Source of the DNA: Candidatus Thorarchaeota archaeon
GTDB lineage: Archaea; Asgardarchaeota; Thorarchaeia; Thorarchaeales; Thorarchaeaceae
Direction of reading: 5' to 3'
Length of the DNA: 48,808 bases
NCBI GenBank assembly: GCA_048882385.1
Contig: JBHLRQ010000014.1
Location: forward strand, 1-48,808
Shown here: piece after piece, positions 13,885 to 35,842 of the stretch
Layout: each line of letters begins with the position of its first letter
Numbering within the stretch: position 1 is the stretch's first letter
The notes under the pieces: generated by a model
The model's input: only the letters and a program-made list of their open reading frames with translations
Databases searched by the model: none
Told to the model about the DNA's origin: nothing
Position numbers and translations under genes: made by a program

Positions 13885-13897
13885 ATGGATCTCTCCT

Positions 13898-15154
13898 TCA
13901 ACTCACATCCTTTGCAATATCAGTTCTATAGCGAACCTTTCCCTTAATATGTGAGGAATTTGTGTACGCAATCTCTCTCGCTTGTGCTACAGTATCACCT
14001 TTTCCTAGTACACTTACCGCTCTGCTCCCTGTTGTTAGCACTTGACCATCTAGTTCATAGACCGAAGCGAAGTAGATCTTAGCAGATGATGCAACACTCA
14101 TGTCGATTGGACTATCTTTAACTACATCCGGTCCAGGATAACCTTCGGGTACAACATAGACACACACTGTTGCCTTCTTTTCAAACTCTATAGTGCCTAG
14201 ATTTCCATCTATTATATTCCTGCAGATTTCATCCATTGGTGTCCTCAGAATCGAAAGAACATTCATTGCTTCAGGGTCACCGAAGCGTGCATTGTATTCA
14301 ATCACTTTGATTCCGCTTTCTGTTTTGATAAACTGTCCGTAGAGGATTCCTTTGTATTCTGATTTCGTATTTTTCTTGATTTGTTCTACGGTCGTTTGCA
14401 TTATCAGCTTTGCATTAACCAAGTCTCCATCGGTCACATAATCCAGATTGTGGTCTTCCTTTGAATACGACCCCATAGAACCTGTGTTTGGACCTTTATC
14501 TTGATCAAAAGCGCGTTTGTAGTCTCTAACAAGTGGCATCGTTACGAGTCGATTTCCATCAACAAATGCTTGTACTGTGAACTCGAGTCCAATCAGTTTT
14601 TCCTCTAAGACTACAACACCCTTATTCCAGAGTTCACTCGACACGTACTTTTCTACATCATCCTGTGAATGCAAATGTTCTCCGAAAATCTTGACTCCTT
14701 TCCCTCCAGTCAATCCATCAGGTTTTACAACAATATTCTCAAGACCAACCTTCTTCACGAATTCTCGATATTCATCCAAACTACGAGCAATAACAAATCT
14801 TGGATTTGCATTTGGGTATGTATTTTGCAGGAGGCGTCTGGCAAATGATTTGCTAGTTTCAATCATGGCTGCAGCTTTTGTTGGTCCTACACATGGAATT
14901 CCCTGATTCATCAAGAAATCTGTATAACCAGATGCAAGAGCGGCTTCTGGTCCAATAACTCCATAGTCCATTCCTATAAGATCTGAGAGTTTCAAAACAT
15001 CATTTAATGGTCCAATAGAAACTTTTTGCGCCAACTTAGCTATTCCAGGATTCCTCCTTTCCATATGAGCATGAATGTCGACGCCAGAAGCCTTTAGACT
15101 TGATGCAATTGCATGTTCGCGAGCTCCGCTGCCAACCAATAATACTCGAGTCAG
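13898..15154 (-). CDS. purD: Phosphoribosylamine-glycine ligase (probable CTG start at 15154)
   Basis: [51 protein letters not shown]. Confidence 0.94.
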
Positions 15155-16584: not shown

Positions 16585-16586
16585 AA

Positions 16587-18758
16587 CTATCCCTCCAAAT
16601 ATTTACTTAGTCCCTGCGAAAATGTGGCTTTTACTTCGTCTAATGGAATCTTGAATTTCCCAAAATCAGCAATCGGGTCAGAAATTGTCAATCCTAGCTC
16701 GCATGTTGAAACTCCATGTTTCTCAGTAATCTTAAGGAATTCAGGTTGATTACTCTCTGTCACCTCAGCCAGATAACGTGCAGAAGTTTCTGAAAACAAC
16801 CTCTGTCCGAGACTGCCTACATTTCCAGGGATATAATCAAGATCCAGCTTAAATCCATACCCGTTGCCTAGTGTCATCTTCATTAGTGAAGCAGCCAATC
16901 CTCCTCTACCAACATTATTGCATGATCGAACAAGGCCCTTTTCCTGTGCTTCATGGATTATACTCATCGTTCGTTTTTCCCACAGAGGACGATACTTTGG
17001 TGGTACTCCCTTAACCTTTCCAAGAATCATTCTTTGATATTCAGTACCATTCATTTCCGGAAGAGTTTCTCCAATAAGGAAGATATTCGCCCAAGGTGTG
17101 CAGAGATTCCTTCGAATAGGTGTGAAATCTCTATCAAAGATTCCTGCAATCATGATTTGTGGAGTCGGGTTGATTCTCTTGAGCTCTCCATCTACAACTG
17201 ATTCATTGTATAGGGATACATTTCCTCCAATAATTGGTATCTCAAAATCATTAGAGAATCGTCCTAGTCCTCTCACAGATTCAACAAATTGAGCATATGA
17301 CTCAGGTCTTTCAGGATTGCCAAAATTTAGACAATCTGCAATAAAGAGAGGTTTTGCTCCCATTGAAACTATGTTCCTCAGCGATTCAGATGCAGAATTA
17401 GCTGTTCCCTCCTGTGGATCAAGATAGCACCAAAATGAATTGCAGTCACTTGTGAACGCAAGTAGTCTACTATTTGGAAATTCGAGAACACCTGCGTTCT
17501 GACCTAGGTCAACGACAGTGTTGGTCTGAACATGTTGGTCGTATTGACTATATACCCAGGACCGATCACAGATATTGATTGATTCGAGCATCTGAAGTAT
17601 TGCTTTTTGATAGTCCTCGGGTTCGATGAACCATGCCATGGAATCAGTTTGTGAAGGAATCTTACCTTCTACTCTCTCTGGCACTGGATATCCATCAACT
17701 AATAAGCTGATTGGGAGTTGCGCTACTATTTCTCCATTAAACTTCGCTGTGTAGTTCTTTTCTTTTGTAACCTCGCCAATCACAGCATATGGAGTACTAT
17801 TCTTTTCCAGGATTGTGATAACTCTTTCAAGATTCTCAGGTGCAACGATGGCTAGCATTCGCTCTTGCGATTCCGAGATTACAATCTCAGCAGGATCCAT
17901 GTCTTCTTCTCTCAAAGGTACTTTTTCAAGATTAATCTCTACTCCAGTATTACCTGCTTTGGCGAGTTCCCCTGCAGCTGATGTCATTCCACCTCCGCCA
18001 AAATCTTGGAGTCCCTCGAGTAGCTCTTCTTCCACCAGTTGTGTCAATGTATCGATTAGTACCTTCTTTGAGAGAGGATCCCCAATTTGAACTGCAGCTC
18101 TATTCTCTTCTTCATCATCAGAGAAAGTTTCTGATGCAAAACTAACACCTGCAATTCCATCTCGACCAGTTGTCGAACCAAACATCACAAGATGATGTCC
18201 AGGAGTCCTTGCTATACTTCGAATAACCTTCTCTGGTTTTACATATCCAATACATACTACATTCACAAGGCAATTCTCATCATATGAGTCATCAAACTCG
18301 ATCTCTCCTCCCACTACGGGAATACCAACGCTATTCCCATAATCCGAAATTCCTCTAACGACGTTTTCCAAGAGATATGCATTGTGTGATTTTTCAGGAT
18401 GACCGAACCTAAGACAATTCATGATTCCTATTGCCTTGCATCCTTGAGATATCACATCTCTAATAATGCCACCAACACCAGTTGCTGCTCCATTATAGGG
18501 ATCTATCTGACTCGGGTGATTGTGAGATTCCATCGCTACTCCAACAAGATATCCATCTCCAATATCGACAAGTCCTGCTCCTTCACCAATACCAAGCGCC
18601 ACTTTTTCTCCTTCGGTCTTAAAGAGATAGAACCACCGTTTACTGCTTTTATAGCTACAATGTTCAGACCAAAGTACATCAAGCATCCCCAACTCTGTCT
18701 TTGTGGGCTCTCTTCCGAGGACTTTTGTAGCATGTTCCAACTCTTTCTTGGTAATCAT
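16587..18758 (-). CDS. purL: FGAM synthase large subunit PurL (small form)
   Basis: [51 protein letters not shown]. Confidence 0.96.
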
Positions 18759-19447
18759 TTTGTAGCCCTCACAAAATTCTCAAGAATCTGGAGTCCATCA
18801 GTTGAACCCAAAATTGGTCGGGATGCTCTTTCAGGGTGAGGCATCAGTCCCAGTACATTCCCTTTCTGATTCACAATTCCAGCGATATTTTCAATCGACC
18901 CATTAGGATTCATCTCTGGTACTACTTCTCCCCCATGATTACAGTACCTGAAGGGAACACGTTTTTCGTCATTGAGGGATACTAAATCATCCTCAGAACA
19001 ATAGTAATTGCCTTCTGCATGTGCTATTGGTAATCTGATAACAGCATTTTCCATTCCCTCGGTGAACATAGTAGGTGTTGCGTTTACACTCAAGTAGATC
19101 CACTTACAAATAAACCGGGCTGAATTGTTAGGAAGTAACACTCCAGGTAGTAGTCCCATTTCTGTGAGAATTTGGAATCCATTGCAGATCCCTAAAATTG
19201 GCTTTCCATCCTCCGCAAGATCTCGTATTCCTTCAACAATTACTTCAACTGATGCAACAGCACCTGCCCTTAGATAGTCGCCATAGGAGAATCCACCCGG
19301 TATCATAATTGCATCTGCATTCTCTAGTCCAGCTAGACCTTTCCTACTTGGTACAAGATATGGATTTGCTCCGGGAATCTGAGATAGAGCACGAATCACA
19401 TCATTCTCATTGTTTGTACCAGGGAATCGAACCACAGCGATTGACAC
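18755..19447 (-). CDS. purQ: FGAM synthase glutaminase subunit
   Basis: FPGTN, PGGFSYGDYLR, GICNGFQIL, AHAEG, MPHPER. Confidence 0.96.
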   Translation of the reverse strand: MSIAVVRFPGTNNENDVIRALSQIPGANPYLVPSRKGLAGLENADAIMIPGGFSYGDYLRAGAVASVEVIVEGIRDLAEDGKPILGICNGFQILTEMGLLPGVLLPNNSARFICKWIYLSVNATPTMFTEGMENAVIRLPIAHAEGNYYCSEDDLVSLNDEKRVPFRYCNHGGEVVPEMNPNGSIENIAGIVNQKGNVLGLMPHPERASRPILGSTDGLQILENFVRATK

Positions 19448-20418
19448 TAGCTCAGTTTCACCTCATGTTTTTCAGATATAGGATTCGATAGAAGTTTGAT
19501 GTTCATTATCTCTAGATGGTTTAGAATCTCTGTGGAAAGAGGTCTTCTGAGTTCTATATTGAAAACCTTCCCAACCTTGACTTCCTCTGCTTCTGCAAAT
19601 CCTAGACGAAGTAATGCTTTCTTAGTTACTTCACCTGGTGGATTTTTAATGCCTGTCTTTGGCCTTACATATACCTGTATCATTTCCTTTCTGTTCGCAA
19701 TTTCTTCGGACTTTGCTTTGGTAATTGAACTTAGTAATTTGGAGTAGACCTCTATTAAATCTCCTTTGTCTTCTCTGAATACATCTTTATCCAGAGATTT
19801 GGATGCATTGTCCCATACTCTCATCGAATCTCCGGATAACTCATCAGCCAAGACAACATGACCAGCATTTGTGCGACCAAATTCTAATTTAAAATCAACC
19901 AGAGTAAGTCCGTTTTGTTTCAGAAGTTCTGTAAGATAGTAATTTGCTGAGAGAGTGACTGATTTCATGAACTGAAGATCCTTGTCAGAAACCAATCCGA
20001 TGCTGCGAATAGCATTGTATGAAATCAGTGGATCGTGAAGATCATCGTTTTTTAGAAAGAACTCAACAAGTGGTTCTTCTAACACTTTGCCTTTCTCAAT
20101 ACCATATCGTTTACAGAATGACCCTGCTGCTAGGTTTCTGCATACAACTTCTACGGGAAACATCTCTACCTTTCTACACAGGAGCTCTGGCCCTCCTAGT
20201 GCTCTTACAAAATGAGTGTCAATACCCTTACCTTCAAGAAAGCCGAGAAGATATTCAGTCATTTTACATGCAAGTTCACCTTTTCCCTTGAATTCCTCCC
20301 TCTTCACTCCGTCACCTGCAGTCACATAATCTGTAAACTCAATAATGATACGATCTTCTGATTTGGGATCTTGGTAGACTTTCTTTACTTTACCTTCATA
20401 CAATAAATCCATAGTCAT
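19447..20418 (-). CDS. purC-purS: PurC-PurS fusion (SAICAR synthetase + FGAM synthase PurS)
   Basis: LYEGKVK, EVVCRN, DFKLEFG, LADE, LDKDVFR (PurC). Then VYVRPKTGIKNPPGE...VKVGKVF...LLSNPISE (PurS). Confidence 0.92.
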   Translation of the reverse strand: MTMDLLYEGKVKKVYQDPKSEDRIIIEFTDYVTAGDGVKREEFKGKGELACKMTEYLLGFLEGKGIDTHFVRALGGPELLCRKVEMFPVEVVCRNLAAGSFCKRYGIEKGKVLEEPLVEFFLKNDDLHDPLISYNAIRSIGLVSDKDLQFMKSVTLSANYYLTELLKQNGLTLVDFKLEFGRTNAGHVVLADELSGDSMRVWDNASKSLDKDVFREDKGDLIEVYSKLLSSITKAKSEEIANRKEMIQVYVRPKTGIKNPPGEVTKKALLRLGFAEAEEVKVGKVFNIELRRPLSTEILNHLEIMNIKLLSNPISEKHEVKLS

Positions 20419-21488
20419 GTTAACACCTCATCTAATTTCTCTGCTTTGACCGCAGCTCGAATGTCAAACATACAGAGGTCAAGAGGCGAGTTCACGGTTT
20501 CACCAAACTTTAGTGACAGCCTTCTCATCTCTGGACTAGTTGGTCCAACGCATGGAGCTCCAGGAACCCTGGGACTGAGATCGAAGACAACGAACTCAGA
20601 AGTTTCCGTTAATGCTCCTTGTAGAGAAAATAGTCCAATCATTTTTGGTGGAAAGTGTACACTCACACCAGCAATTAGTTTCTCTGCTGCTTCATACACT
20701 AGTGGTTTCTTACTTTCCCTCATTGTCACACCCCTATGTCCTACTTCTTCATTCATGATTTTGACTTCAATCTTCATTTGCTCTTTTGCTGGAAGGCTTA
20801 GTAATCCACCAAGACTGGTCTGAACTCTGTCATCAAATCCAACAAAATCAAGATCTCCAAATGCTTGACTCATTCCATATGCTTGAAAATTAGCGTTAAA
20901 CCTTGGTGCTAGTACAAATTCCTCCATTGTTGCCTGCGAGAGTGCTTCCTCTGTGATTATGCCTTTCTCCAAGTATGCCTTGCTCTCCTTATCATAATCC
21001 GCTGGAGAACTAGCATAAAAGAAGGCCCTTTCCAATGGTTTGTCTTTCTGTTGAACCTTTATGATTACTAGACGGTCTATCGAATCAGGTGTGAATGATT
21101 TGGGAATACGAACACCTGCTTTTTCTAATAACCAATATTGATCCTTTGGAAAGCCCCTTTCCTCGACTCTCAAAAGATATCGATTACCATACAAAGGGAT
21201 TTTGAATGATGTTTCAATCTCATCATAGCCAACATAAACTGAAAATGAACGATTTGGAATCCAGACTGTATCAAGCTCTTTCAATCTCTCTTGGATTTCT
21301 TTATTCAGTATATCTTTGAACGAATCTAACAGAATGATTTCGTCGTAGAGGTGTCTACTATAGTCAGTATAGAGCTTTTCTCTGCCTTTCTGGGCAACGA
21401 CTACTGTCCGGAATCCATTTGCTTTTGCAGAAACACCTATCTCTTCTGCGCTATGCGAACCAATCATTCCAATTGTTGGTAATTTCAT
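20415..21488 (-). CDS. purP: PurP-like ATP-grasp protein (DUF1246/DUF1297)
   Basis: IGSHSA, IPNRSF.VY.G, GNRYLLR.EER, ERAFF, T.RES, SPRVPG. Confidence 0.88.
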   Translation of the reverse strand: MKLPTIGMIGSHSAEEIGVSAKANGFRTVVVAQKGREKLYTDYSRHLYDEIILLDSFKDILNKEIQERLKELDTVWIPNRSFSVYVGYDEIETSFKIPLYGNRYLLRVEERGFPKDQYWLLEKAGVRIPKSFTPDSIDRLVIIKVQQKDKPLERAFFYASSPADYDKESKAYLEKGIITEEALSQATMEEFVLAPRFNANFQAYGMSQAFGDLDFVGFDDRVQTSLGGLLSLPAKEQMKIEVKIMNEEVGHRGVTMRESKKPLVYEAAEKLIAGVSVHFPPKMIGLFSLQGALTETSEFVVFDLSPRVPGAPCVGPTSPEMRRLSLKFGETVNSPLDLCMFDIRAAVKAEKLDEVLT

Positions 21489-21500
21489 TCCGACTCACCT

Positions 21501-22454
21501 CTAAGTTAAAACCTCCTCTAATCGGTCTTGTTCAATAAGCTCACGAATCTCCAAAGCAATTCTTTTCCCCATCCACATTGGTTTACTAAATTGAAGGAAT
21601 GAATATGGTGAAGATGGAATCCAGACATTTGTCCCAGCAACAATTCTCCCACTAAACTCAAAGCTGACTATTCTCTGATTCCTGTCGATTATTGTTTCGA
21701 TGCAAAATGGGCCTGGTATTGTATCTTCTGACAACCTCTGAAACGCTTCTACAAATGCCACTCCCATATCGTAGTACTCTGCAAGTGTCGATTCACGGAG
21801 AACTAATGGCAAATTCCCGATGACAATAAAGCTAGGTTGATCGTTAAAACGTAGGTTTGCATCAGCATCTGTTTCATATCGAATGTCAGCACCAAACACC
21901 TCAATGCGGTCATGGACCAGAGAATTGAAGTATGTAACAAAGACCTTTGTTCCAACTATATACTCCTGAAATGTATACTTCTTTGAAGAATCGATTTTAT
22001 CTTGTATCTCGTCAAGGTCCTTCGCGATGAAGTATCCTGATCCACCTGCTGCTCCTGAAGTCTTAGCAATAACTGGACAATCAATCTCTTCAGTTGAGCG
22101 GAATTCACGTGGGATATAAAATCCAGCTTCTTTCAATAGTTTTGATTTGAGTTCGCGATCCTCCTCCCAACGCAGCAGTTGCTTGTTCCCAAAGAGTCGA
22201 AGATTCGAATCAAGAATTCGCTCAGCTCCCAAATATGCCACAAATGAGCCATGTGGGACTAACACTACATCATCCAAATCAATCTCAAAAATATCTTCGA
22301 ATTCGTTTACTTGAACTATTGAGTTTTTGAGTCCAAATGACTCGTAAAACTTCCGACGATCAGGTGTACAGAATAGGACTGTTTCAAATCCCTCTGACTT
22401 TGCACCTGATAGTATATTGAGGGCACTGTGACTTGCGATTGTCCCTATCTTCAT
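21501..22454 (-). CDS. purP: FAICAR synthetase PurP (formate-dependent)
   Basis: TIASHSAL, PHGSFVAY, GN.QLLRWE, GNLP.VLRES, GPFCIE, FEFSGRIVAGTN, MGKRIA.E. Confidence 0.9.
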   Translation of the reverse strand: MKIGTIASHSALNILSGAKSEGFETVLFCTPDRRKFYESFGLKNSIVQVNEFEDIFEIDLDDVVLVPHGSFVAYLGAERILDSNLRLFGNKQLLRWEEDRELKSKLLKEAGFYIPREFRSTEEIDCPVIAKTSGAAGGSGYFIAKDLDEIQDKIDSSKKYTFQEYIVGTKVFVTYFNSLVHDRIEVFGADIRYETDADANLRFNDQPSFIVIGNLPLVLRESTLAEYYDMGVAFVEAFQRLSEDTIPGPFCIETIIDRNQRIVSFEFSGRIVAGTNVWIPSSPYSFLQFSKPMWMGKRIALEIRELIEQDRLEEVLT

Positions 22455-23857
22455 TATGATATATCCCTCTCATAGTCTCTGGCATTAGACGATTCGAGTT
22501 TTTGAACTCTCTCTCGAATTGTACGTGCATGCTCTGTAGGGTACTCTCCATTCAAACACGCTAAACATAGATCTTTGAGACCTATCGCATTCTCAAGTGT
22601 ATTTGTTTCTTGATAGATGAGTGCATCAGCTTCAATAAAGGATGTGATTTCCTCTATTTTTGCAGTTGAAGCAATTAACTCGCGATCTGTTGCGATATCA
22701 ATACCATAATAGCAAGCATGGGCTTGTGGTGGACAGGTGACTGCGAAATACACCTTTGCAGCGCCTCTTCTCTTGAGATCAGAAACTATCATTTTTGCTG
22801 TTGTTCCGCGCACAACACTATCATCAACCACAAGTATGATTTTACCTTTGATTTTATCATCCAAGTAGATGTATTTGTTTCGTGCCATCGAATCCCTTTC
22901 TTCCTGAGACCTCATTATGAAAGTTCGACCAAGATATCGGTTCTTCAGGATGATTTCCCGCATTGGTACTTGTAGTTTCTCCGCCATTGCTTGGGCTGCT
23001 GGTCTGCTTGTATCTGGAACTGGTGCCACATAATCAGGATTTTCAAGGTTCATCTTTAGGAATGTGTGAGATAACGCTCTTCCCAATCTGAAACGAACAT
23101 CATAGACTAATTGATTCTCAATTGTAGCCGCTGGATGTGCAAAATAGACATACTCGAAGAAGCAATGAGTATGGAGTGAATTTTGTAATATCGAATGTGA
23201 TTCCAGAGCTCCTCCGTCTTCAAAGACCAATAACTCTCCTGGATAAACATCCCTTTCCAGGGGGATTCCAACCATATCTAATACTGTGCTCTCAGACACC
23301 ACGATTGTTTTTTTACCGGATCTTCCAAATACAAGTGGTTTGAAACCTCGACTATCTCTATAGGCAAACAACTTTCCATTCCATAATCCTACAAGACTGA
23401 ATGCTCCATCCACTTCAGACTCAAGTTGCTTGAATGCCTTGGGTAAATTGCCATTGTTCTCTTTGACATAACACAAAAGCTGTTCAGTAATGAATTCAGT
23501 ATCACAATCGTAGGTATTGTCAGTGATTGTATTGATGTTTGTTACATTTCCATTATGTGTCAAAGCTAAGCCATCTGCTTCGAATGGACCAACATATTTG
23601 TTCAAATCAGCCTCTGATACTACTCTGCGGCCGGTAGTGGGATATCTTGTGCTCCCCAATATTTGAACACTGTCTATTTCTGGAACATCAATTCTTGAAG
23701 GACTACCAATGGCTTTTGCAGTAGATACTTTTTCTGCATCGATCCAAAGAAGACCTGCTGCATCTTGACCCCTATGCGCCAAGAGCAAAAGTAGTTCCCT
23801 TGCTTTTCTCAAAGAGAATTCACCTTGAATTCCTAAAACACCGCACATACTAGTCAT
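22454..23857 (-). CDS. purF: Amidophosphoribosyltransferase (Fe-S type)
   Basis: MCGVLG (N-terminal Cys), HRGQD, HNGN, CFFEYVYFA, VDDSVVRGTT, CYYGID, LCLAC. Confidence 0.95.
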   Translation of the reverse strand: MTSMCGVLGIQGEFSLRKARELLLLLAHRGQDAAGLLWIDAEKVSTAKAIGSPSRIDVPEIDSVQILGSTRYPTTGRRVVSEADLNKYVGPFEADGLALTHNGNVTNINTITDNTYDCDTEFITEQLLCYVKENNGNLPKAFKQLESEVDGAFSLVGLWNGKLFAYRDSRGFKPLVFGRSGKKTIVVSESTVLDMVGIPLERDVYPGELLVFEDGGALESHSILQNSLHTHCFFEYVYFAHPAATIENQLVYDVRFRLGRALSHTFLKMNLENPDYVAPVPDTSRPAAQAMAEKLQVPMREIILKNRYLGRTFIMRSQEERDSMARNKYIYLDDKIKGKIILVVDDSVVRGTTAKMIVSDLKRRGAAKVYFAVTCPPQAHACYYGIDIATDRELIASTAKIEEITSFIEADALIYQETNTLENAIGLKDLCLACLNGEYPTEHARTIRERVQKLESSNARDYERDIS

Positions 23858-24462
23858 TCCTCCTTGATTATCACTCTTCTACCATCGATTTCTAATCTAT
23901 CAGTACAATAAAGTTGGACTGATTTCACGAGTATCTTATGTTCCTCGGGAAGGATTCTCTGAGCTAAAGTTTCTCCAGTATCCTCGTTAAACACTGGGAC
24001 TGCTTTCTGTAGAATCAAAGGACCATCATCCATATCCTCTGTTACAAAATGTGTAGAACATCCTGAAACTTTGACACCATGTTCAATTGCTTGATGTTGA
24101 GCTTTGATTCCTTTGAAGGATGGAAGAATTGATGGATGGACATTGATGATTCTGTTTCTAAAAGTCCTGATGAACATGTCACTAAGAATTCGCATATATC
24201 CTGCGAGAACGATAAGATCAACATTATAGTCCTTTAGAATCTGTTCCACTTTCTTATCGAAATCTTCTCTATTGGGATAAGCTTTCTTCGTCATTATTTC
24301 TATTGGAATTCCTGCCTTTTGAGCACGCTCGAGACCAAAAGCTTTTGACTTGTTGCTCAGGACAACGACTATTTCTCCTCCCAGCGTACCACGAGCTTGA
24401 GCATCAATTAATGCTTGAAGGTTTGTACCACGTCCACTGATGAGGACGCCTATCCGCTTCAT
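23854..24462 (-). CDS. purN: Phosphoribosylglycinamide formyltransferase (folate-dependent)
   Basis: LISGRGTNLQAL, LAGYMRIL, NVHPSILPSF.G, GCSTHFV...DDGP, EH. Confidence 0.95.
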   Translation of the reverse strand: MKRIGVLISGRGTNLQALIDAQARGTLGGEIVVVLSNKSKAFGLERAQKAGIPIEIMTKKAYPNREDFDKKVEQILKDYNVDLIVLAGYMRILSDMFIRTFRNRIINVHPSILPSFKGIKAQHQAIEHGVKVSGCSTHFVTEDMDDGPLILQKAVPVFNEDTGETLAQRILPEEHKILVKSVQLYCTDRLEIDGRRVIIKEE

Positions 24463-27903: not shown

Positions 27904-28974
27904 CTAAGGTTTCATTTGAGTAAGTATTTCCCTAGTCCTTGGTTCTGCTAACAGTACATGTTGTAATTTGCACAGTAACTTAGCAATTTCCGCATAGATT
28001 ACCTGTCTTGCTGGGTCTGAACCAGACTCTGCATTCTGGATGGCCTCTTCGACCTGCTGATTAAGTCTCTTGATGAGTCTTTTCTCAAGCTCAGGACCAC
28101 CCCAACCGAAACCATCGAAAGCAGTCTGAGCCTCCAATATTTTCTCTTTGATGTCTACCTCTTTCTCTCTAAGAATCGGTTCAACTCCAGCAAAATACTT
28201 GGCCACTGCGCGTTCAATTCGTTCCATCTCGGATGCATTTAGATAATTCTCTTGCTGCCGAGTCTTCATTAAATCTTGAAGCAACCTGGCTCCTGGTGCC
28301 TCTGTCAATAGACCTTTTGCAGTCTTTACAAGTATTCGAGCAGGTAGTTCAATAACATCTCCAAGGTATGGTGAGTCCGATTTGTATCTGTGAATCTCTC
28401 TCAATGACTCTAGCCAGAATGTTGGAAGCAGTACATGACATGATGTGCTCTTCTGCTGAATCAATCGTTGGCTCTGACCAATTAGTCCAAACTGGTCATC
28501 CTCTACATCAACCTTACGATATGCTTCGACTGGTGTTGTAGTTTCTCCACCAACAAGCGGAATGATATCACCTTCAGCTGATGCTGCAGTTTCTGTAATC
28601 TTAGCACCTGATCCCTTCTTTACAGCCTTAGTCCCTTCCAAAAGCGAAAGGATCTCTTGTGTTGCAGTTCCCGATTCAGCTTGCTTTGCTTTATCAGAAA
28701 GCTTGGGCAATAGACTTTCGACTTGTGATAGTCTCTTTACAATAAGACTCATGATATTCTGAGTCGAGGGTGGAATCCCTTTCATTGTCGTAGCTTCTTC
28801 CATCCATTTTCGTGTTCGAAGTAGTCCCTGAGTCAGTGAATCAACACGATCTGGATCTATACTCTCTTCGACTTGTGAGCTGAGCAGAAAGTGGATCAAT
28901 GTCGAGTTTAAAGTCACGATAAGGAGAAGCCTATCGATGAGGTCTTCGTACTGGAAGTTGGAAGAGTCAGACAA
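27904..28974 (-). CDS. Hypothetical mostly alpha-helical protein, third gene of the tubulin-like operon
   Basis: 356-aa ORF starting 17 bp after the tubulin-like gene; GGTGGTGA RBS before TTG; no recognised domain. Confidence 0.75.
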   Translation of the reverse strand: MSDSSNFQYEDLIDRLLLIVTLNSTLIHFLLSSQVEESIDPDRVDSLTQGLLRTRKWMEEATTMKGIPPSTQNIMSLIVKRLSQVESLLPKLSDKAKQAESGTATQEILSLLEGTKAVKKGSGAKITETAASAEGDIIPLVGGETTTPVEAYRKVDVEDDQFGLIGQSQRLIQQKSTSCHVLLPTFWLESLREIHRYKSDSPYLGDVIELPARILVKTAKGLLTEAPGARLLQDLMKTRQQENYLNASEMERIERAVAKYFAGVEPILREKEVDIKEKILEAQTAFDGFGWGGPELEKRLIKRLNQQVEEAIQNAESGSDPARQVIYAEIAKLLCKLQHVLLAEPRTREILTQMKP

Positions 28975-28991: not shown

Positions 28992-30389
28992 TTATTCCAT
29001 AGTTTCTCCAGGTGTCATGTAATAGCTAAAGAGTTCGCGGAAATCGTTAATCGCATCAACGAGTTCCTTTCTTGTTGTACCCTTTGATCTCATGAACCAG
29101 CCTTGTTTTAGAGGTGAAGCACCACTGTGAAGATTGACAAGTTGAGTTGCTTCATTGATGATTTGAACGAGTTCAGGTATTTTTGGCAACCCTAGCAATA
29201 GGAGTAGGTTGGTATTCGAATCCTCTTGATTCAGATACTGAACGTAGCATGGTGTGATAGCAGCTCCTGGAGCTATGAATTTGTCAAGAGCCTCCTTCAC
29301 ATGCATTCCAAATTCTGCCTTGGCAACATGCCGCGGTCCAGACATGACATAATAAACACTCTCGGCATTGGGTTCTTCTCCTACGTCCGCATACGAGCAC
29401 TCTTTCACAGCATAATCAATCATTGTCTTTAGCTGTTTTGGCATGCTTCCTGCATCTGGAATCAGACCAATGTCTGTGTATAGTGCAGGGACAACAACTG
29501 GGTCAAGTTTTCTTGCATAGTCAGCCAAGTCTGTTGTGGGAAAGACATCCTTTGACGCCTCCCACACTCCTGGTGATAGCATTGCCTCGACCACGTCTAG
29601 AGCCAATGGATTCACAAGCTCCACAAATGCCTGCTCTGTTCTTGCATCTGCATCAGTTGCTTCTTCTAGCGTGGATGGAACCATTGTTTCAATTGAGTCG
29701 ATATCTGCAATGTCCACTTCCAATTCTCTCTGTAGATAATCAACCGTATCCCCCTTTCTCCATTGGAGAATTCTCTTCAGCATCGTTCTGTTTGAGAGAA
29801 GGATTGTTAGATCTGCTCCTCTTTCTTGAAGTTGTGCCCGAAGTAGCTTGGAAACAGCCCATATTGAGTTCAGGGCTTCGCTAGATTGCCCCTCAAATGG
29901 AAGAATACCAATAACATAAACGAAGATACGTCTGCCCTCTTCTTCTTGGAATCGTTGCTTTAAGAGTTCAATAAGTGCTGGTGTACCACCACAACCAGTA
30001 CCACCACCCAGACTCGTGAAGATACAGAAACCAGATACTCCCTCGAATCCTAGGTTGCTGAGCTGGTCGAAGATGATGTCCTTGGATTCCATGATGCTGT
30101 TATAACCATCCATGAAACGTCCTCCGACACCGATCTCACTGGCACCATATAGGAGTGTATTCTCTTTCGGAATACCATATTTCTGGCGAACCTTTGTAAG
30201 GTCAGCTCTGTCTGTATTGATGAGTAGATATCCTCTCACACGTGAGGGTAGTCTCTTATCTCTGCTTGTCTTGAGATATGATCCCACAATGTTTGAACCA
30301 CACTCGCCAATTCCAATGGCGAATACTTCGGCTGCTTTTGTTGTGTCATCACTCTCAATAGGTGCTTTGGGTGGACTGCTACCGAACAT
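28992..30389 (-). CDS. Divergent tubulin/FtsZ-superfamily GTPase
   Basis: T1 IGIGECGSNI, T2 INTDRADL, T3 GVGG, T4 signature SLGGGTGCG, T5 ILPFEG, T6 SN, T7 TDLADY; tubulin-like C-terminal helices. Confidence 0.92.
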   Translation of the reverse strand: MFGSSPPKAPIESDDTTKAAEVFAIGIGECGSNIVGSYLKTSRDKRLPSRVRGYLLINTDRADLTKVRQKYGIPKENTLLYGASEIGVGGRFMDGYNSIMESKDIIFDQLSNLGFEGVSGFCIFTSLGGGTGCGGTPALIELLKQRFQEEEGRRIFVYVIGILPFEGQSSEALNSIWAVSKLLRAQLQERGADLTILLSNRTMLKRILQWRKGDTVDYLQRELEVDIADIDSIETMVPSTLEEATDADARTEQAFVELVNPLALDVVEAMLSPGVWEASKDVFPTTDLADYARKLDPVVVPALYTDIGLIPDAGSMPKQLKTMIDYAVKECSYADVGEEPNAESVYYVMSGPRHVAKAEFGMHVKEALDKFIAPGAAITPCYVQYLNQEDSNTNLLLLLGLPKIPELVQIINEATQLVNLHSGASPLKQGWFMRSKGTTRKELVDAINDFRELFSYYMTPGETME

Positions 30390-30401: not shown

Positions 30402-33092
30402 CTATTTCTTCCTTGAATCGACCAAAGCCTGAGCACTTATTCGAATTGCCCAACTGAGGTATGAACTGATATCCTCTCGGCTATAGGTTTCTCTTATTTT
30501 CCTTATTGCGTCATCAATGAATTTGTCACGGGTTTCTGCTTTGTCCGCGGGACTGAAACCAGTCATGAACATTCTGAGTGACTTATGCCAGTCATCCATT
30601 GACACTGCTTTCTCAAGCCATTGTTTTCTCATATCACCAAGCTCGTGGAAGTTTGTGATAGCTGCATCTAGATCGGTCGCTTCTGTCAGACCTTCCTCCA
30701 ACGATTTCATCTTCTTGATGTTGAACACAATCTTGCTGAAATCATCTGGATGATTTTCCACAACTCTTTCAATTGTAGAGTAGTATTGACTTCGCTTCTT
30801 GAGCTCATTTGTATGAGTTTCACCAGCTTTTTCTGCTATGCTCTTGATCATCTGGAGCATCTCTTCTTGGATGTTAGCTAAAGTCAGACACACATCCAAT
30901 GCCTCATTCACATGTGGTGAATCAGTCTCCAGTTTTCCTGGAACTTGGTCGATAAGGACCTTCAGACGTTCAACAAACTCTGACATCCCTTGGTCCTCAA
31001 AGAGGGAAAGTGCTCCTTTGATCTGTACATAGGCTTCATCCACTCGATCTCTGATTTTCTTATGAACAGCAGGTGAAGTTGTAAGGTTCATGAGCTTGTC
31101 AAAAGCATCTGCAGCATCCTCCAACTCGGATGGTGGTTTGTCCTTCAGATTGTTAAGCATCTTCAGTTCTTTACCAAGCTTTACACCGATACTACTAGCT
31201 CTATCAAGACTAGTTATCAGTGAATCAACCTCGACTCCTAACTTCTCGATAATCTTTTCCTGGATTTTCTTCTCATATATCTCAACCATCTTCCTAGCAA
31301 TTGCAGGAAGACTGAATACATTATCTGCGGCTACTCCAACGCTGTTTAATTCACTTATGGCCTCCTGTGCAACAGGAGGTATTTCTACTCCAGCACCCAT
31401 CAGTTTGGCTGCTGCTAGTCTAATCTTGACTCCAAGTCTGTATCTGAGATTTTCAAGTGCATCTTGCGCTTTAGCAAGAATTCCATCCTTGATAGATCGC
31501 ATTTCTGACTTAATCTCTGAGAAATCATCCAATCCCTGTATCCTTGTAGAACCTTCATCAAGTTCGACTATTATTGGCATGAATATTTCTGCATAAGCAG
31601 GTTTGACTGTTTGCAAGTCATGTACGATGGCATCAATCTCCTGTTGGCATGCTTCACGGAAGGTTGCAACTCCACTCTCAACAGCTCCTCGAAGACTTGA
31701 AAGAGAGCTTAGCAAGTAGACAATTCCTCCTTCAAGCTCCTCGACTTTCGGAGCTTTCTTGCTGAGTTGTGCGTGATCTAAAACTCGGTCTGCTGATGTT
31801 GCGAGTTCATTGAATCTAGTGAGATAGTTTCTGATAGACTCAGTTATGTTCTTCCGATACTCATCATCCATTGATTTTGCTTGTAGATATATCCTAACCA
31901 TATCATCTATGTCTGCAGACTTTAGTGTCTTCTTAGAATCTGCAATGAATTGACGGACCGCAACAACATCCTTTATCCCTGAATCTTCAGGTGCTTCGGT
32001 TGCTTTCTCAACATCGTCAAGGAGTTCGAATAGACGTTCTCTTAGAGCAATCCTAACCTGGCCTTCCCATTCTACCATTTTCTGATAGCTGGATAGAAGA
32101 TTGGCTATTCCTTCTCCTTCGACACTAACATTAGGTGCAGGAGGGATTACATCCGCGGTTGTTGGAATGCCTCCTGAAACAATTTTAGCTGTGACCTCGT
32201 GACTGATGTTAATGATTCTATCTCGAAGCATATTTGCCATCTTTACTTGTGCAGAGTGAAGTTGATTCTCTAATGCAATTAGTTCTGTAAGTGTCTTGGC
32301 TTGAGATGCATCTCGAGCAATCAGTCTAAGTTCTTTGGAGAATTCGATGGGTAACTCAAGACCTAGTCTGGATGCGGTTTCTACGGATGCTTGTAACGAT
32401 TCTGTGCTACCAACTAAAGATGATCCAAGTAGTTTGCTGACTTCATCTTTCCTGCCATCCAAGAATTGGACATCTGCTTGCAGCTTCTCATTTAGAATGA
32501 TCAGGTCTCGAAGGGATAGACTAGACACATCATCATTTGAAACTGTTGTAGCAACCTCGCTTTTGTCTATTGAAATATGGCGTTCGTAGGTTTCCACTGT
32601 AGCTTTATTCTCATCAAGAGTTGATTTCACATCTCTGGCTACATCTTCTAGAATGACGAGATAGAGCTTTGAGAATGCTTTTGCAAACTCATGCAATTTT
32701 TCAAAATCTTTGAGATCTCCTGCTCCTATACCTGGAAAATTCAGAGAAGAAATTCCTTTGACTTCTTTTGGTTTTAAATCTTGAATCTTCGGTGCGATTG
32801 CCAAAGTGTCCTTGTGTTCTTTACGGAAATATTCCGCAAAATCTCGAGTTACTCTCATGAAATCGGTTTCAAGATCACTTCTAGTCTTATCGACTTGAGT
32901 TTGTACCTTTCTCTTTTTCATAAATCCAGAAGTTGCTAACTCGTTCTCCATTTTTGTCAAATTTGCGAAGATATCGTAAAGCTGTCGGACTTGACGATCC
33001 GATTGTTCTTCCATCGCAGGATTTACTGACACTAGGATTCCTTTTAATTCAGCGAGTTTGTCTAGTTCACGTCTCCAACCGCTAGTATCCAA
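30402..33092 (-). CDS. Large (896 aa) alpha-helical/coiled-coil protein, first gene of the tubulin-like operon
   Basis: Long ORF rich in E/K/L/A/D; GGAGGT RBS before TTG 33092; 12-bp gap to the tubulin-like gene; no Walker A or TM segment seen. Confidence 0.85.
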   Translation of the reverse strand: MDTSGWRRELDKLAELKGILVSVNPAMEEQSDRQVRQLYDIFANLTKMENELATSGFMKKRKVQTQVDKTRSDLETDFMRVTRDFAEYFRKEHKDTLAIAPKIQDLKPKEVKGISSLNFPGIGAGDLKDFEKLHEFAKAFSKLYLVILEDVARDVKSTLDENKATVETYERHISIDKSEVATTVSNDDVSSLSLRDLIILNEKLQADVQFLDGRKDEVSKLLGSSLVGSTESLQASVETASRLGLELPIEFSKELRLIARDASQAKTLTELIALENQLHSAQVKMANMLRDRIINISHEVTAKIVSGGIPTTADVIPPAPNVSVEGEGIANLLSSYQKMVEWEGQVRIALRERLFELLDDVEKATEAPEDSGIKDVVAVRQFIADSKKTLKSADIDDMVRIYLQAKSMDDEYRKNITESIRNYLTRFNELATSADRVLDHAQLSKKAPKVEELEGGIVYLLSSLSSLRGAVESGVATFREACQQEIDAIVHDLQTVKPAYAEIFMPIIVELDEGSTRIQGLDDFSEIKSEMRSIKDGILAKAQDALENLRYRLGVKIRLAAAKLMGAGVEIPPVAQEAISELNSVGVAADNVFSLPAIARKMVEIYEKKIQEKIIEKLGVEVDSLITSLDRASSIGVKLGKELKMLNNLKDKPPSELEDAADAFDKLMNLTTSPAVHKKIRDRVDEAYVQIKGALSLFEDQGMSEFVERLKVLIDQVPGKLETDSPHVNEALDVCLTLANIQEEMLQMIKSIAEKAGETHTNELKKRSQYYSTIERVVENHPDDFSKIVFNIKKMKSLEEGLTEATDLDAAITNFHELGDMRKQWLEKAVSMDDWHKSLRMFMTGFSPADKAETRDKFIDDAIRKIRETYSREDISSYLSWAIRISAQALVDSRKK

Positions 33093-33105: not shown

Positions 33106-33303
33106 GTCTAGTATGGCTATTTTCTGGGTGGATGTCTTAAGTTCTTTCTGTGTGGGTCCTCCCTTTTCAACGATTGTATCATGTATTCAACTCGAATAAG
33201 ATGTCAAAAAATGCTTTTTAGGGCTGTTTTAACCATGAAAGAAACTGCCTTAAGTACTACAAAACTCAGGTATGATACTTACATAACCTCATGGAGAGAA
33301 ATT

Positions 33304-35208
33304 ATGGATAAAGGTTCGCCAGGCTCAAATGATTCCAAGGCTTTGAGTCATGAGATAATCAGTACACTTGATGCCTCTGCAGTGGATATTACATATGATG
33401 ATAAATTCCTCTATGCCGCTTGTGATGATCTTCGAGTCCGCGTATGGTCAAAAGATAACTGGCAGCTTGTAGCAGAATTAGGTGAGACTGATACTCCCCC
33501 GTTAGTTGTAGATGTTGATGACACACAAGTCTTTGCAACCTGTGAAAGACGAGTTTATGTTTGGAATAAAGCGACCTGGGGAATGACTGGTTGGTTCGAA
33601 TTAAGTTACCATGCGATAACCTCAACTCTCTCAGGAGACTACTTCTATGTTGGTTCAAGGGAAGGCAGGTTGGTTTCAATCAAGAAAGATACACATGATA
33701 CATCCAGTTGGCAACTTCACAAGTCAGATATAACTGACATCTGGTCTGATGATAAGATAATATGTACAAGTACAAAAAAGGAAGAACCTCGGGTTTGGCT
33801 CAAAGCTAAAGAAACTGCTCCATCTGAACTTGCTAGGTTGGACAAGAAAGGAAAAGGTGGAGTCATTGTTGGGAATTCCGAATTTGTGCTGGTTGGATCT
33901 CCAACAGGAGAGATAGCAGTTTATGACCGTGTTGAATGGAGTCTTGTTAGGTCTCTTGAATCAAGTGTTTCGAATTCAGTTACGTCGATGTGGGCTAGCA
34001 GTTACTATCTCATTGCTGCTTTGACTCATGGATCTCTCGTCATTTGGGATTTGAAGAGGGGTGAGGAGGTTGGAGCAGTTACACTCAACGGTCAGAAAAT
34101 CAGCTGGGTGTCAGCAGATCAAGACCGAATGTATATTGCAACCTCTGACAACATTCTTGTCATCCGATTATCATTTCGTGGTAGACCCCTCGATGTATGT
34201 ACTAATGAACTGCCTATATGGACTGATAGTCTATTGAAGACATCTCCCTATGATGTACTCGAGAGTGCGCTCGAATTAGAGAAAAAGGGAGATGAACAGT
34301 ATCAAGATGGTTTGTTTCATGAATCAGTAATTGACTATGAGAATGCACTTCAAATTCTAATTGATAATACACATGCTTTGCTTGAGGTGCCAGAGGAGCG
34401 ACAAATTCTCACAGACGAACTAAACGTGCGACTTGGCAAGGCACTATTGAAAGCCAAGATACAAGAGATTCAAGCTTTGGATCTTGAGATTCGCCAATTG
34501 ACAGAAGAACTAGAAATTCGAAAAAGAACTGATAGAGACTCTGAAGATGTAGAGAAACTTTGGACCAAAGCTGGACGAACCATTAAAGAAAGCAAGGTTC
34601 TAGCAGAAGCTCAAGCTGGAGACATGCTGAGTTACCAACTTGTTCATGTTGTGGAAACTCTAGAATCTGATCTTAACGAAGCGATGTCTAAATTTGCTGA
34701 GTTTCGCGAAACAATTACACAAGCAATGGGTCTCACCCGTCAGATTTCCAATGAATGGCGATGGTTGGAACGAAAGAGGACTAAACTTCCGGAGCGTAAG
34801 AAATTTCTCGAAGGTGCTATGGAAAAGCTATCTTCCGCTCTTGATTCAGCTGAACCTGAAGGTGAAGTTCGCCAAATCCTATCAAGTGCTCTAGAAGAAT
34901 ACAAACGACTTTACAGCCAGATAGATAGGATTGTTTCTTCTTATGATGCGGAACAAGACACGACTTTCACTTCTCGTGATGAGGCTACAGAAGCAATTGA
35001 AAGTCTTTTAGCAGTAATACCAAAAAAGATTGCAGCGCTCCAAGACATTGAAAATGAAACAGAGCGTGAATTGGAACTTCAGAGGATCATATCAGCTCTT
35101 GAACAAGCGATGGAAACTGCGAATTCTTTCAAGATGAATAAACTAACGAAATCGATTCAAACCGAGTTAGATAAGGTTCGACCTTCTGAAGATTCTAAGA
35201 AACAGTAA
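33304..35208 (+). CDS. WD40 beta-propeller + MIT/TPR-like hairpin + coiled-coil protein
   Basis: WD-like repeats (DDLRVRVWS, RVYVWN, HKSDITDIW, GEIAVYD, GSLVIWDL), then a helical C-terminal half. Start placed at ATG 33304 after GGAG (ORF track start 33181). Confidence 0.85.
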   Translation: MDKGSPGSNDSKALSHEIISTLDASAVDITYDDKFLYAACDDLRVRVWSKDNWQLVAELGETDTPPLVVDVDDTQVFATCERRVYVWNKATWGMTGWFELSYHAITSTLSGDYFYVGSREGRLVSIKKDTHDTSSWQLHKSDITDIWSDDKIICTSTKKEEPRVWLKAKETAPSELARLDKKGKGGVIVGNSEFVLVGSPTGEIAVYDRVEWSLVRSLESSVSNSVTSMWASSYYLIAALTHGSLVIWDLKRGEEVGAVTLNGQKISWVSADQDRMYIATSDNILVIRLSFRGRPLDVCTNELPIWTDSLLKTSPYDVLESALELEKKGDEQYQDGLFHESVIDYENALQILIDNTHALLEVPEERQILTDELNVRLGKALLKAKIQEIQALDLEIRQLTEELEIRKRTDRDSEDVEKLWTKAGRTIKESKVLAEAQAGDMLSYQLVHVVETLESDLNEAMSKFAEFRETITQAMGLTRQISNEWRWLERKRTKLPERKKFLEGAMEKLSSALDSAEPEGEVRQILSSALEEYKRLYSQIDRIVSSYDAEQDTTFTSRDEATEAIESLLAVIPKKIAALQDIENETERELELQRIISALEQAMETANSFKMNKLTKSIQTELDKVRPSEDSKKQ

Positions 35209-35212
35209 ACTA

Positions 35213-35842
35213 TCAAGAAGCTGCGATACCCGGTAGTGATGGATAGTCCTCTTCAAGATATGTATCATCAATTAGGTCAACCCATGGTGATGCAATGTCT
35301 TCCAATGATGGTTCAATTGCAATGGCATATTCCACTGCTTCTAGTGCAGAATTGAAATCTTCAAAGAACAAGTAGCACACAGCAAGATTATACCAAGTGA
35401 CAGCTGAGTTAGGATTGAGGTCCAGCGATTTTTCCAAGGCATCAACAGCCTCATCCCATTTCTCTTCCCCCACAAGTGCTGATGCAAGCAATTCCCATTT
35501 GCGGACATTACGAGGTTGGAGTTTAACGCTCTCTCGAAGAGCATCAATGCCTGCTGAGTTCTCGTTCAGAAGTAAATGGATGAAACCCTTGTCTGCCCAT
35601 GTTGAGGATGAGTTGGGGTCAAGCTTCAATAAACTGTTGAGTGCTTCGATTGCTAACTTAGGTTTCCCCATCTCTAGATTACATATTGCTAAGTTTTCCC
35701 AAGCCTGAGTATTACTAGGATCTACAGAGAGACCGTGTTCTAGTTTAGCCATAGCCTCGCCAAACCTTTTCTTTTTGATCAACGAAGTAGCCTGGTCAAC
35801 GAGGGCGTTGACATCTGCACTATTTTCAACGGAAGGCAACAT
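35213..35842 (-). CDS. TPR-repeat protein (about 5 repeats)
   Basis: Repeated W..LA/G...A...L.LDP/LNP pattern. Confidence 0.9.
   Translation of the reverse strand: MLPSVENSADVNALVDQATSLIKKKRFGEAMAKLEHGLSVDPSNTQAWENLAICNLEMGKPKLAIEALNSLLKLDPNSSSTWADKGFIHLLLNENSAGIDALRESVKLQPRNVRKWELLASALVGEEKWDEAVDALEKSLDLNPNSAVTWYNLAVCYLFFEDFNSALEAVEYAIAIEPSLEDIASPWVDLIDDTYLEEDYPSLPGIAAS

Follow-up and report, generated by a model that had tools for sequence, protein, structure and literature searches.

The closest described relatives of the protein analysed here are the Asg.Tub proteins, which PMC9871819 (Santana-Molina, del Saz-Navarro and Devos, 2023) presents as a new group of CetZ-like proteins of Asgardarchaeota. 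As described there, Asg.Tub resembles our family in being Asgard-only, in including Heimdall- and Loki-class lineages, in its CetZ-type indels and in a placement that shifts between tubulins and CetZ; their Figure 4 shows the group at the base of the tubulins, and their own conclusion puts it closer to CetZ. The distribution, trees and indels found here agree with this description, on which we base the judgement that family and Asg.Tub are very probably identical; probably the family is also the 'CetZ-related Asgard archaeal clade' that serves as an outgroup in a recent preprint (bioRxiv 10.64898/2026.02.15.705738). Six accessions and three motifs had no match in the searched part of the PMC9871819 supplement. 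The article describes the neighbours of Asg.Tub as unknown, coiled-coil proteins, and the neighbours here are orphans too; the Asg.Tub C-terminal HMM is said to match no other family, with limited similarity to CetZ, whereas the tail analysed here matches tubulin helices H11'-H12. A fixed three-gene cassette is a further addition to that account. The branch has very probably already been named, and the tubulin-type tail match and the cassette are what the present analysis adds. Full-text literature searches returned no bench study or purification of the family.

The gene encoding the protein, P0001, lies on a 48,808-nucleotide stretch of a Candidatus Thorarchaeota archaeon contig (JBHLRQ010000014.1), called the window below (Table 1). 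We consider it probable that P0001 is an intact, likely GTP-dependent filament-forming cytoskeletal protein belonging to a separate, Asgard-only CetZ-like lineage, with a predicted tubulin-type hairpin at its C-terminus and a place in a conserved gene cassette. True tubulins are rare in Asgard archaea and the Asg.Tub-like family is common, and a CetZ-like core joined to last helices that match tubulin is relevant to the origin of tubulin and of the microtubule surface.

Table 1. Positions of the GTPase gene, its predicted structural elements and its cassette partners in the window
Feature	Coordinates	Strand	Basis or remark
GTPase gene P0001, Asg.Tub-like family	28992..30389	-	465-aa ORF; Pfam PF00091; fold Z ~35
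GTPase domain, residues 21-205	29775..30329	-	Pfam match; motif blocks in alignment
H6-H7 insertion, ~residues 207-250, family-specific, largely acidic	29640..29771	-	alignment block; low-confidence prediction
T7 loop TTDLADY, residues 285-291, acidic pair D287 and D290	29517..29537	-	alignment
Predicted H11, residues 405-420	29130..29177	-	model pLDDT 90-91; profile match to CetZ H11
Predicted short H11', residues 426-435	29085..29114	-	model; aligned with tubulin 'hWY'
Predicted H12, residues 440-457	29019..29072	-	model; superposition; profile; register; conservation
Upstream partner, 896-aa orphan	30402..33092	-	12 nt from GTPase start codon
Downstream partner, 356-aa orphan	27904..28974	-	starts 17 nt past GTPase stop codon

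Firstly, P0001 retains the nucleotide-binding and hydrolysis elements of the superfamily. Its match to PF00091 spans residues 21-205 (E 1.6e-19; 71.4 bits, cut-off 33) and recurs at the same site in a search of the whole genome, and the alignment blocks contain loops T1 (GIGECGSNIV), T3 (GVGGRFMDGY), T4 (GGGTGCGG) and T5 (ILPFEGQSSEALN), of which GGGTGCGG is the superfamily G-box GGGTG[ST]G, conserved across 118 rows. The first-pass annotation had likened GECGSNI in T1 to tubulin GQCGNQI; the cysteine also occurs in some CetZ. The T7 loop aligns with FtsZ NLDYAD and has the FtsZ-type D-x-x-D spacing, with D287 invariant and D290 kept in at least 90% of the 118 rows of the family alignment, so that on this alignment the acidic residues that activate GTP hydrolysis are present. 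With complete nucleotide-binding loops and this T7 pair, subunits stacked head to tail in a filament should each activate the GTPase of the next, as in FtsZ, CetZ and tubulin. We infer polymerisation, GTPase activity and partner binding of P0001 from homology and gene order.

Outside these elements the protein departs from each of the characterized families. Relative to CetZ it carries an insertion of ~40 residues between H6 and H7, for which the alignment gives no counterpart in CetZ, FtsZ or tubulins and of which residues 211-250 are modelled at a pLDDT of 57-61, and it has E in place of Q in T1. No match to CetZ_C (PF21011) was found in P0001 up to E 1 or in five relatives up to E 0.1, compared with E 1.8e-54 for a canonical CetZ (P0138) and with the presence of the domain in 33 of 65 distant matches. 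Likewise Tubulin_C (PF03953) gave no match in P0001 up to E 1 (an Odin-type tubulin scores E 1.2e-15), and the tubulin insertions in the T5 loop and the post-H8 'VPFPR' region are absent from the alignment blocks of P0001, as they are from CetZ and FtsZ. The Pfam search gave no match to FtsZ_C (PF12327), and the TIGR00065 equivalog reached 31.2 bits, below its cut-off of 295.2. The same genome carries two separate FtsZ genes, FtsZ1 and FtsZ2, and a search of it found no true tubulin.

While a single-sequence AlphaFold2 prediction of P0001 was unusable (pLDDT 42.7), the model that replaced it, built from an alignment of 118 relatives, reached a pLDDT of 85.1 and a pTM of 0.86. In this model P0001 adopts the two-domain fold of the tubulin/FtsZ superfamily (GTPase domain, H7 and activation domain). 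VIA-align gives Z 35.4 against OdinTubulin (rmsd 2.8 over 360 aligned residues), 35.3 against CetZ2 and 34.0 against β-tubulin, and Z 33-35 over 323-363 aligned residues for tubulins and CetZ overall. The tubulins compared, OdinTubulin (7evb), AtubA/B, BtubA/B and eukaryotic α, β and γ, share the fold at Z 33-35. The CetZ structures, with which the GTPase domain, activation domain and H11 align, give Z 34.6-35.3. A Foldseek search of the model against the PDB does not separate tubulins from CetZ, all matching at E ~1e-17.

At the level of sequence the core is far closer to CetZ than to tubulin. Full-length profile comparison (hhalign) of the family with CetZ scores 284 (probability 99.9, E 6e-38, 340 columns) and extends over residues 21-422, through H11, whereas the comparison with tubulin scores 95 and covers the GTPase domain only. 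Among solved structures the best sequence matches are to CetZ (CetZ1 4b46 and CetZ2 4b45 of Haloferax volcanii, and 3zid of Methanosaeta thermophila), a PDB profile search ranking CetZ1 (1.4e-19), CetZ (3.3e-15) and CetZ2 (3.3e-13) ahead of TubZ and tubulins. Two family members are named 'Tubulin-like protein CetZ' in NCBI records. These observations could be explained if the family lay inside the CetZ radiation, its second helix being an amphipathic segment that resembles H12 by convergence or through model bias; consistent with this, the sequences of some CetZ tails suggest a possible second helix after H11. We nevertheless regard a position within CetZ as quite unlikely, given the missing CetZ_C domain. 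In addition the family scores 282 over 344 columns against a Halobacteriota group of proteins with PF00091 as their only match (GrpH; Halobellus and a Methanosarcinales MAG), equal to its score against CetZ.

Secondly, the C-terminal tail differs from that of CetZ and recalls that of tubulin. The interval 29016-29180 on the minus strand encodes residues 404-458 (IPELVQIINEATQLVNLHSGASPLKQGWFMRSKGTTRKELVDAINDFRELFSYYM), and it was in this segment that the first-pass annotation recognized tubulin helices. The model predicts an H11-H11'-H12 hairpin on the outer surface, as in tubulin, although the network that produced it was trained on tubulins. The three helices superpose on H11, H11' and H12 of OdinTubulin, BtubA/B and eukaryotic tubulin to the last residue of H12, where model residue 459 pairs with OdinTubulin 420 and β-tubulin 424/434, and the tubulin-like packing expected by the earlier annotation is thus borne out in the model as far as that residue. 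The solved CetZ chains, by contrast, end at model residues 419-429 in the same superposition, i.e. at H11; their tails are variable and mostly acidic, as opposed to the predicted ordered H11'-H12 of P0001. To our knowledge CetZ has only H11 and no H12.

The superposition is matched by a trace in the sequence. When family residues 398-465 (118 rows) were compared by hhalign with a C-terminal profile of 19 tubulins, residues 429-459 aligned to tubulin 'hWY-geG...Y' with a score of 24.9 (P 1.5e-4), at an hhalign probability of only 51%. None of 200 column-shuffled profiles reached this score (mean 9.7, sd 2.0, max 16.7), a null that is lenient because shuffling of columns destroys helical periodicity, and the reversed tail profile scored 9.7 against tubulins. 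The comparison also drew on the Odin-type tubulin of locus L088, which ends ...HYVNAGTSKSNLKEARDNFDRIIKIYKEI, and on a eukaryotic β-tubulin (part of P0224). The motif W-[FY]...G...A..[DN]..L...Y is common to family and tubulins, and hhalign places it with the same one-residue gap that had been proposed by eye. In this register Y457 pairs with β Y422 and Odin Y418, which brings residue 459 opposite 424/434 and 420, the exact ends of the structural alignments. By these comparisons the tail shows a faint similarity in sequence to tubulin H11'-H12 that nonetheless exceeds chance. CetZ tails score 8.5 against tubulin tails, and the contrast with the family's 24.9, in a register that agrees with the superposition residue for residue, argues against convergence within CetZ.

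The helix that precedes this segment has a different affinity. Residues 399-422 align with CetZ H11 and not with tubulin H11 (score 20.0, P 7e-4), and the PDB profile search aligned the H11 region with residues 351-377 of CetZ1 4b46. The I-x-E-L-x3-I-x-E pattern that the first-pass annotation read as a tubulin signature is accordingly real when set against eukaryotic β-tubulin but is not specific to tubulins. Its description of the protein as a mosaic stands insofar as a CetZ-like core is followed by a tubulin-matching H11'-H12; an intermediate position between CetZ and tubulin, the other half of that proposal, is supported only in part, given profile scores of 284 and 95 and the unstable tree described below.

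Conservation within the tail follows the predicted packing. Across 115 rows W431 and F432 of H11' are invariant, as are the succeeding K436 and G437, and the buried face of H12 (L443, A446, D449, L453, F454, Y457) is conserved, while the exposed face is variable, with 1.75-3.0 bits at positions 441, 444, 445, 448, 451 and 452. A conserved docking surface on the exposed face fits badly with this variation, and the different partners that the first-pass annotation read from the H12 charge are putative. The proposed replacement of the acidic H12 and tail of tubulin is confirmed by charge. The segment that starts at W431 and runs to the C-terminus has a net charge of -1 in P0001 and of between -2 and +2 among 11 family members, compared with -19 and -20 in two eukaryotic β-tubulins; but the value is only -3 in three prokaryotic tubulins, so that the long acidic tail is likewise missing from Asgard and bacterial tubulins.

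Thirdly, the position of the family in the superfamily tree depends on the sequences included. The main maximum likelihood tree (52 rows, 380 columns, LG+C20 PMSF), whose data set omits α, γ, δ and ε tubulins and artubulins, places the family in one group (97/87) with tubulins and the Halobacteriota proteins, separate from the CetZ_C-carrying clade of CetZ (95/92). Four of five tree variants (111 rows, 52 rows, without tail columns and without tubulins) put the family outside the CetZ clade, in agreement with the earlier expectation of a branch outside CetZ/FtsZ. Omission of the C-terminal columns leaves the topology unchanged (SH-aLRT 86), and with tubulins omitted the family and the Halobacteriota group are sisters (99/94). 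In the fifth variant, from which the Halobacteriota group was removed, tubulins, the family and CetZ collapse to an unresolved trichotomy, so that the expected proximity to tubulins is recovered in the main tree but lost with that group.

Taken at face value the main tree would make Asg.Tub, together with the Halobacteriota group, the closest surviving archaeal sister of tubulins, with the hairpin as a shared derived feature. The basal placement in the published Figure 4 and the alignment of the tail with tubulin H11'-H12 rather than with CetZ tails point the same way, and in AU tests on the 52-row subset an exclusive clade of family and tubulins costs just 0.26 lnL (p-AU 0.35). We think this relationship unlikely, however. 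The three stems joined in this grouping are long (1.28, 2.39 and 1.40), making long-branch attraction a likely source of the tubulin grouping. None of the four constrained alternatives was rejected, the remaining three being family with CetZ (AU p 0.059, short of rejection at 0.05), tubulins outside all CetZ-like groups (0.20) and tubulin with CetZ (0.17). The family's profile score against tubulin is lower than that of CetZ against tubulin (133), the tubulin-type insertions are absent, and the T7 loop is of FtsZ type. The conclusion of PMC9871819 itself, in the part cited, weighs against the relationship, as does the tubulin sampling of the data set.

The Halobacteriota group, possibly the 'Halo.Tub' of PMC9871819, resembles the family in its two-helix tail and in the E of T1 but comes from another phylum. 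Its tail matches tubulin H12 weakly (score 14.1, P 0.04) and the family tail not significantly (11.4), and consequently it is not established that the second helix arose only once. In the reading that we prefer, the family would be a separate archaeal branch with the Halobacteriota group as its sister, and not a demonstrated intermediate toward tubulin. The hairpin may date back to the CetZ/tubulin stem and have persisted in tubulins and the Asg.Tub-like lineage, while in canonical CetZ only H11 may be left of it, followed by a variable tail.

If the tail does form an H11'-H12 hairpin, there would be an archaeal precursor of the outer microtubule surface beyond the tubulin clade. A stronger proposition, which we hold to be unlikely, is that this hairpin and that of tubulin are true homologues and that Asg.Tub and its Halobacteriota sister are the nearest surviving archaeal relatives of the tubulin stem. 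Were this so, the outer surface through which the microtubule binds its partners would be older than tubulin itself and would already have been used in Asgard archaea with the 896-aa and 356-aa proteins, as a primitive system of filament and associated proteins.

Of 400 Asgard genomes, 124 carry the family and 8 a true tubulin. In the genome families with true tubulins (f10, f21, f28 and f29) the Asg.Tub-like family was found in 0/12, 0/14, 0/3 and 0/4 genomes, respectively. Conservation is strong, with 50-60% identity between Asgard classes, and the named database matches are nearly all Asgard, one cluster including records labelled Bathyarchaeota and Thermofilum.

Finally, the gene is inherited across Asgard lineages as part of a cassette with two orphan proteins, which supplies two candidate filament-associated proteins; those of 896 and 356 residues may act on or with the filament. 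Pfam and NCBIfam searches of both gave sub-threshold noise only, and in the ESM Atlas the 356-aa protein had no usable match and the 896-aa protein had none beyond the Thorarchaeota cluster to which it belongs. The two are unrelated to each other (hhalign probability 1.3). The ORF adjacent to OdinTubulin (~445 aa) is not detectably related to either partner (hhalign probabilities 7.8 and 0.1). Divergent WD40-like and TPR genes were also considered as parts of the module and set aside, as they occur at Thorarchaeota loci only (43/80 and 40/80) and not at L063-L083. The complete three-gene cassette is present at 72 of 80 loci, the other 8 being cut by contig ends. Of another 10 loci, which represent eight other groups at GTDB-family level, nine hold all three genes; the 356-aa gene is missing only beside a second gene copy, and the 896-aa gene is present at all ten.

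The 465-residue GTPase (Table) matches the Pfam Tubulin/FtsZ GTPase domain over residues 21-205 (E 1.6e-19; 71.4 bits, cut-off 33), while none of Tubulin_C, CetZ_C and FtsZ_C was matched in it (Pfam, E up to 1) and the FtsZ model TIGR00065 gave 31 bits, below its cut-off of 295. The surrounding genome (3.7 Mb, 256 contigs, the window being contig C14) carries two ordinary FtsZ genes besides this gene, and Tubulin_C has no match anywhere in it. Translation of residues 404-458 returns the same letters that the first-pass annotation had quoted for the C-terminus.

Table. Features of the window
Feature	Position (nt)	Strand	Remarks
GTPase ORF, 465 aa	28992..30389	-	site of interest at the ORF 3' end
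GTPase residues 404-458	29180-29016	-	
Upstream partner ORF, 896 aa		-	ends 12 nt before GTPase gene
Downstream partner ORF, 356 aa		-	starts 17 nt after GTPase gene
675-aa WD40-like protein	33181-35208	+	divergent from cassette
209-aa TPR protein	35213-35842	-	comes after 675-aa gene
397-aa protein	11113-12306	-	full histone-deacetylase domain (E 8e-89); adjoins purine cluster
Purine-biosynthesis gene run	12331-24462	-	long run (Pfam)
AIR carboxylase fused to AIR synthase-like domain	15151-16584		within purine run

The AlphaFold2 model computed with the 118-row family alignment A1 (pLDDT 85.1, pTM 0.86) predicts helices at residues 405-420, 426-435 and 440-457, with block pLDDT values of 90, 91, 83, 92 and 93 across residues 401-450 and low confidence for residues 211-250; a single-sequence fold (pLDDT 42.7) was discarded. 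OdinTubulin, CetZ and the tubulins tie against this model in Foldseek (about 1e-17) and likewise in VIA-align Z, and it is the aligned ranges that differ. Superpositions on CetZ stop early (CetZ2 4b45, Z 35.3, 326 aligned, model residues 20-423; CetZ 3zid, Z 34.8, 19-429; CetZ1 4b46, Z 34.6, 20-419), whereas model residues 20-459 superpose on OdinTubulin (7evl, Z 35.4, 360 aligned, rmsd 2.8, chain to 420), BtubB (5o09, Z 34.3, 356 aligned, rmsd 3.1, chain to 424) and beta-tubulins (Z about 34, chain to 424 or 434).

The tails were also compared as profiles by hhalign, residues 398-465 of the family being set against the final 78 columns of an alignment of 19 tubulins (whole-genome matches supplied Asgard sequences, and a single database search supplied Asgard, verrucomicrobial and eukaryotic beta-tubulins). 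Family residues 429-459 pair with the tubulin pattern 'hWY-geG...Y' with a one-residue gap (score 24.9, P 1.5e-4, probability 51%), a score attained by 0 of 200 column shuffles (maximum 16.7). In this register family Y457 equals beta-tubulin Y422 (sequential numbering) and Odin Y418, therefore residue 459 equals 424 (434 in alpha-based numbering) and Odin 420. These pairs are the exact ends of the structural alignments, and thus two independent methods agree to the residue. Family and CetZ tails align only at H11 (residues 399-422, score 20.0), and CetZ against tubulin tails gives nothing (score 8.5). W431, F432, K436 and G437 are invariant in the family, in which H12 is conserved on its buried side and variable at its exposed positions. 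The tubulin-type C-terminus proposed in the first-pass annotation is thus borne out by the predicted helices, their superposition to residue 459 and the profile match in the same register, and the tail very probably forms, as modelled, a tubulin-type H11'-H12 hairpin on a CetZ-like core. Two-helix ends also occur in other archaeal proteins matching PF00091 only (P0134, P0161, P0210 and a Halobacteriota group including P0142, P0146 and P0170), the second helix bearing tubulin-H12-like patterns such as 'EGISESEF...' or '...NLDEYL'; the Halobacteriota group, the sole one compared, aligns weakly with the tubulin tail (score 14.1, P 0.04).

Full-length profile comparisons point the opposite way to the tail, towards CetZ. 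The family aligns with 34 CetZ over 340 columns (residues 21-422; hhalign score 284, probability 99.9, E 6e-38) and with the Halobacteriota group, drawn from Halobellus and one Methanosarcinales MAG, over 344 columns (282), but with tubulins over only 154 columns confined to residues 38-207 (95); CetZ against tubulins gives 133 over 193 columns. A PDB profile search places CetZ1, CetZ and CetZ2 at the top (1.4e-19 to 3.3e-13), before TubZ, OdinTubulin (3e-8) and beta-tubulin (1e-7). In the alignment blocks loop T1 reads GIGECGSNIV, with E replacing the Q of others and a cysteine that some CetZ share, and T4 reads GGGTGCGG; T5 has the FtsZ/CetZ length, T7 (TTDLADY) is FtsZ-type, the tubulin insertion after H8 is absent, and an insertion of ~40 residues between H6 and H7 is family-specific.

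The full tree has 111 rows (26 FtsZ, 4 TubZ-like, 29 CetZ, 21 family members and distant relatives, 14 tubulins, 11 Halobacteriota group, 6 others). Partial sequences were excluded from it, as were most near-identical CetZ and 100 of the 118 family rows, and its sample is without alpha, gamma, delta or epsilon tubulins or artubulins. The quick tree supports CetZ (SH-aLRT 95) and a clade of family, tubulins and Halobacteriota group (91), as does the careful tree (52 rows by 380 columns, LG+C20 PMSF; 95/92 and 97/87), in which the triple clade has no resolved inner order and stems of 1.28, 2.39 and 1.40. The topology is kept without the tail columns (support 86); removing the tubulins leaves family plus Halobacteriota group at 99/94, and removing only the Halobacteriota group yields a trichotomy. 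In AU tests an exclusive family-tubulin group costs 0.26 lnL (p-AU 0.35), tubulins outside all CetZ-like groups 4.8 (0.20) and tubulin with CetZ 5.5 (0.17). The constraint joining the family with CetZ costs 6.75 lnL (p-AU 0.059), and none of the four constraints is rejected. From topologies and AU tests we infer that the family is probably a separate branch outside canonical CetZ. Its placement with tubulins is, as judged from these sequences, prone to long-branch attraction. Of the suggested intermediate lineage between FtsZ/CetZ and tubulin, the position outside the CetZ clade was recovered in four of five tree variants, but the tubulin link dissolved into a trichotomy without the Halobacteriota group and the core is closer to CetZ; an intermediate towards tubulin is possible.

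Of 8000 candidates scored in a word-indexed search with the protein, 152 matched at E up to 1e-3. The 120 matches listed are 97-49% identical; those with a named source belong to Thor-, Loki/Prometh-, Hermod-, Hod/Heimdall- and Asgardarchaeia records and are labelled 'hypothetical' except two, 'Tubulin-like protein CetZ'. An exhaustive phmmer scan of 1.84 billion cluster representatives gave no more than 100 matches at E up to 1e-3, of which 4 fall at or below 1e-30, those outside the family matching over the GTPase domain only; a cluster at 44% identity is Baldrarchaeia, apart from a few records under other labels. The A1 HMM, built from 118 members, detects the family at E up to 1e-40 in 124 of 400 Asgard genomes: 74/85 in the window's own GTDB family, 20/22, 15/19, 5/5, 4/4 and 2/2 in others, 1/1 in three, and 0/135 and 0/31 in two large ones. 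True tubulins (Tubulin_C) occur in 8/400, in four GTDB families where A1 did not find the family. Beside each Odin-type tubulin gene (loci L086-L091) lies a conserved ~445-aa ORF with no detectable likeness to either cassette partner.

Santana-Molina et al. (2023; PMC9871819) describe 'Asg.Tub' as a CetZ-like group of Asgard archaea whose placement is unstable, with CetZ-type indels, coiled-coil neighbours, limited C-terminal likeness to CetZ and a C-terminal HMM that matched nothing, which the authors conclude is nearer CetZ than tubulin. Full-text literature searches returned that name from this paper only, and no bench study of the family. By description, the window gene is very probably an ordinary ortholog of this already named, uncharacterised family.

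Both flanking partners are without a family match in database searches. Among 80 loci fetched from 117 relatives found in 185,579 species genomes, 72 hold the three genes in the same order; in the other 8 the contig breaks off next to the GTPase gene. The partners are only 26-29% identical where the GTPases are 59-63% identical. Eight other GTDB families supplied another 10 loci, of which 9 have all three genes, the exception being a second gene copy with the large partner only. Outer genes (WD40-like, TPR, acyl-CoA synthetase-like) are common to closer relatives only, WD40-like and TPR genes standing beside the cassette in 43 and 40 of the 80 loci, in Thorarchaeota only, and being absent at loci L063-L083. 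The conserved cassette most likely encodes a filament system. Second copies of the GTPase gene occur in nine genomes, all of GTDB family f11; at the one such locus examined (L127, G067:C1:2891428-2904738) the copy adjoins a large-partner homolog and no small partner is detectable. The window's 675-aa protein has weak, sub-threshold WD40-type matches.

Outside the archaea, the 438-aa protein P0173 of the bacterium Microbulbifer epialgicus matches PF00091 and, weakly, Tubulin_C (5e-6), and may be a bacterial tubulin outside Verrucomicrobia. Elsewhere in the window the purine run includes GMP synthase, GARS, FGAM synthase parts, SAICAR synthetase fused to PurS, two adjoining DUF1246/DUF1297 (PurP-like) genes, an amidophosphoribosyltransferase-like gene and a formyltransferase.
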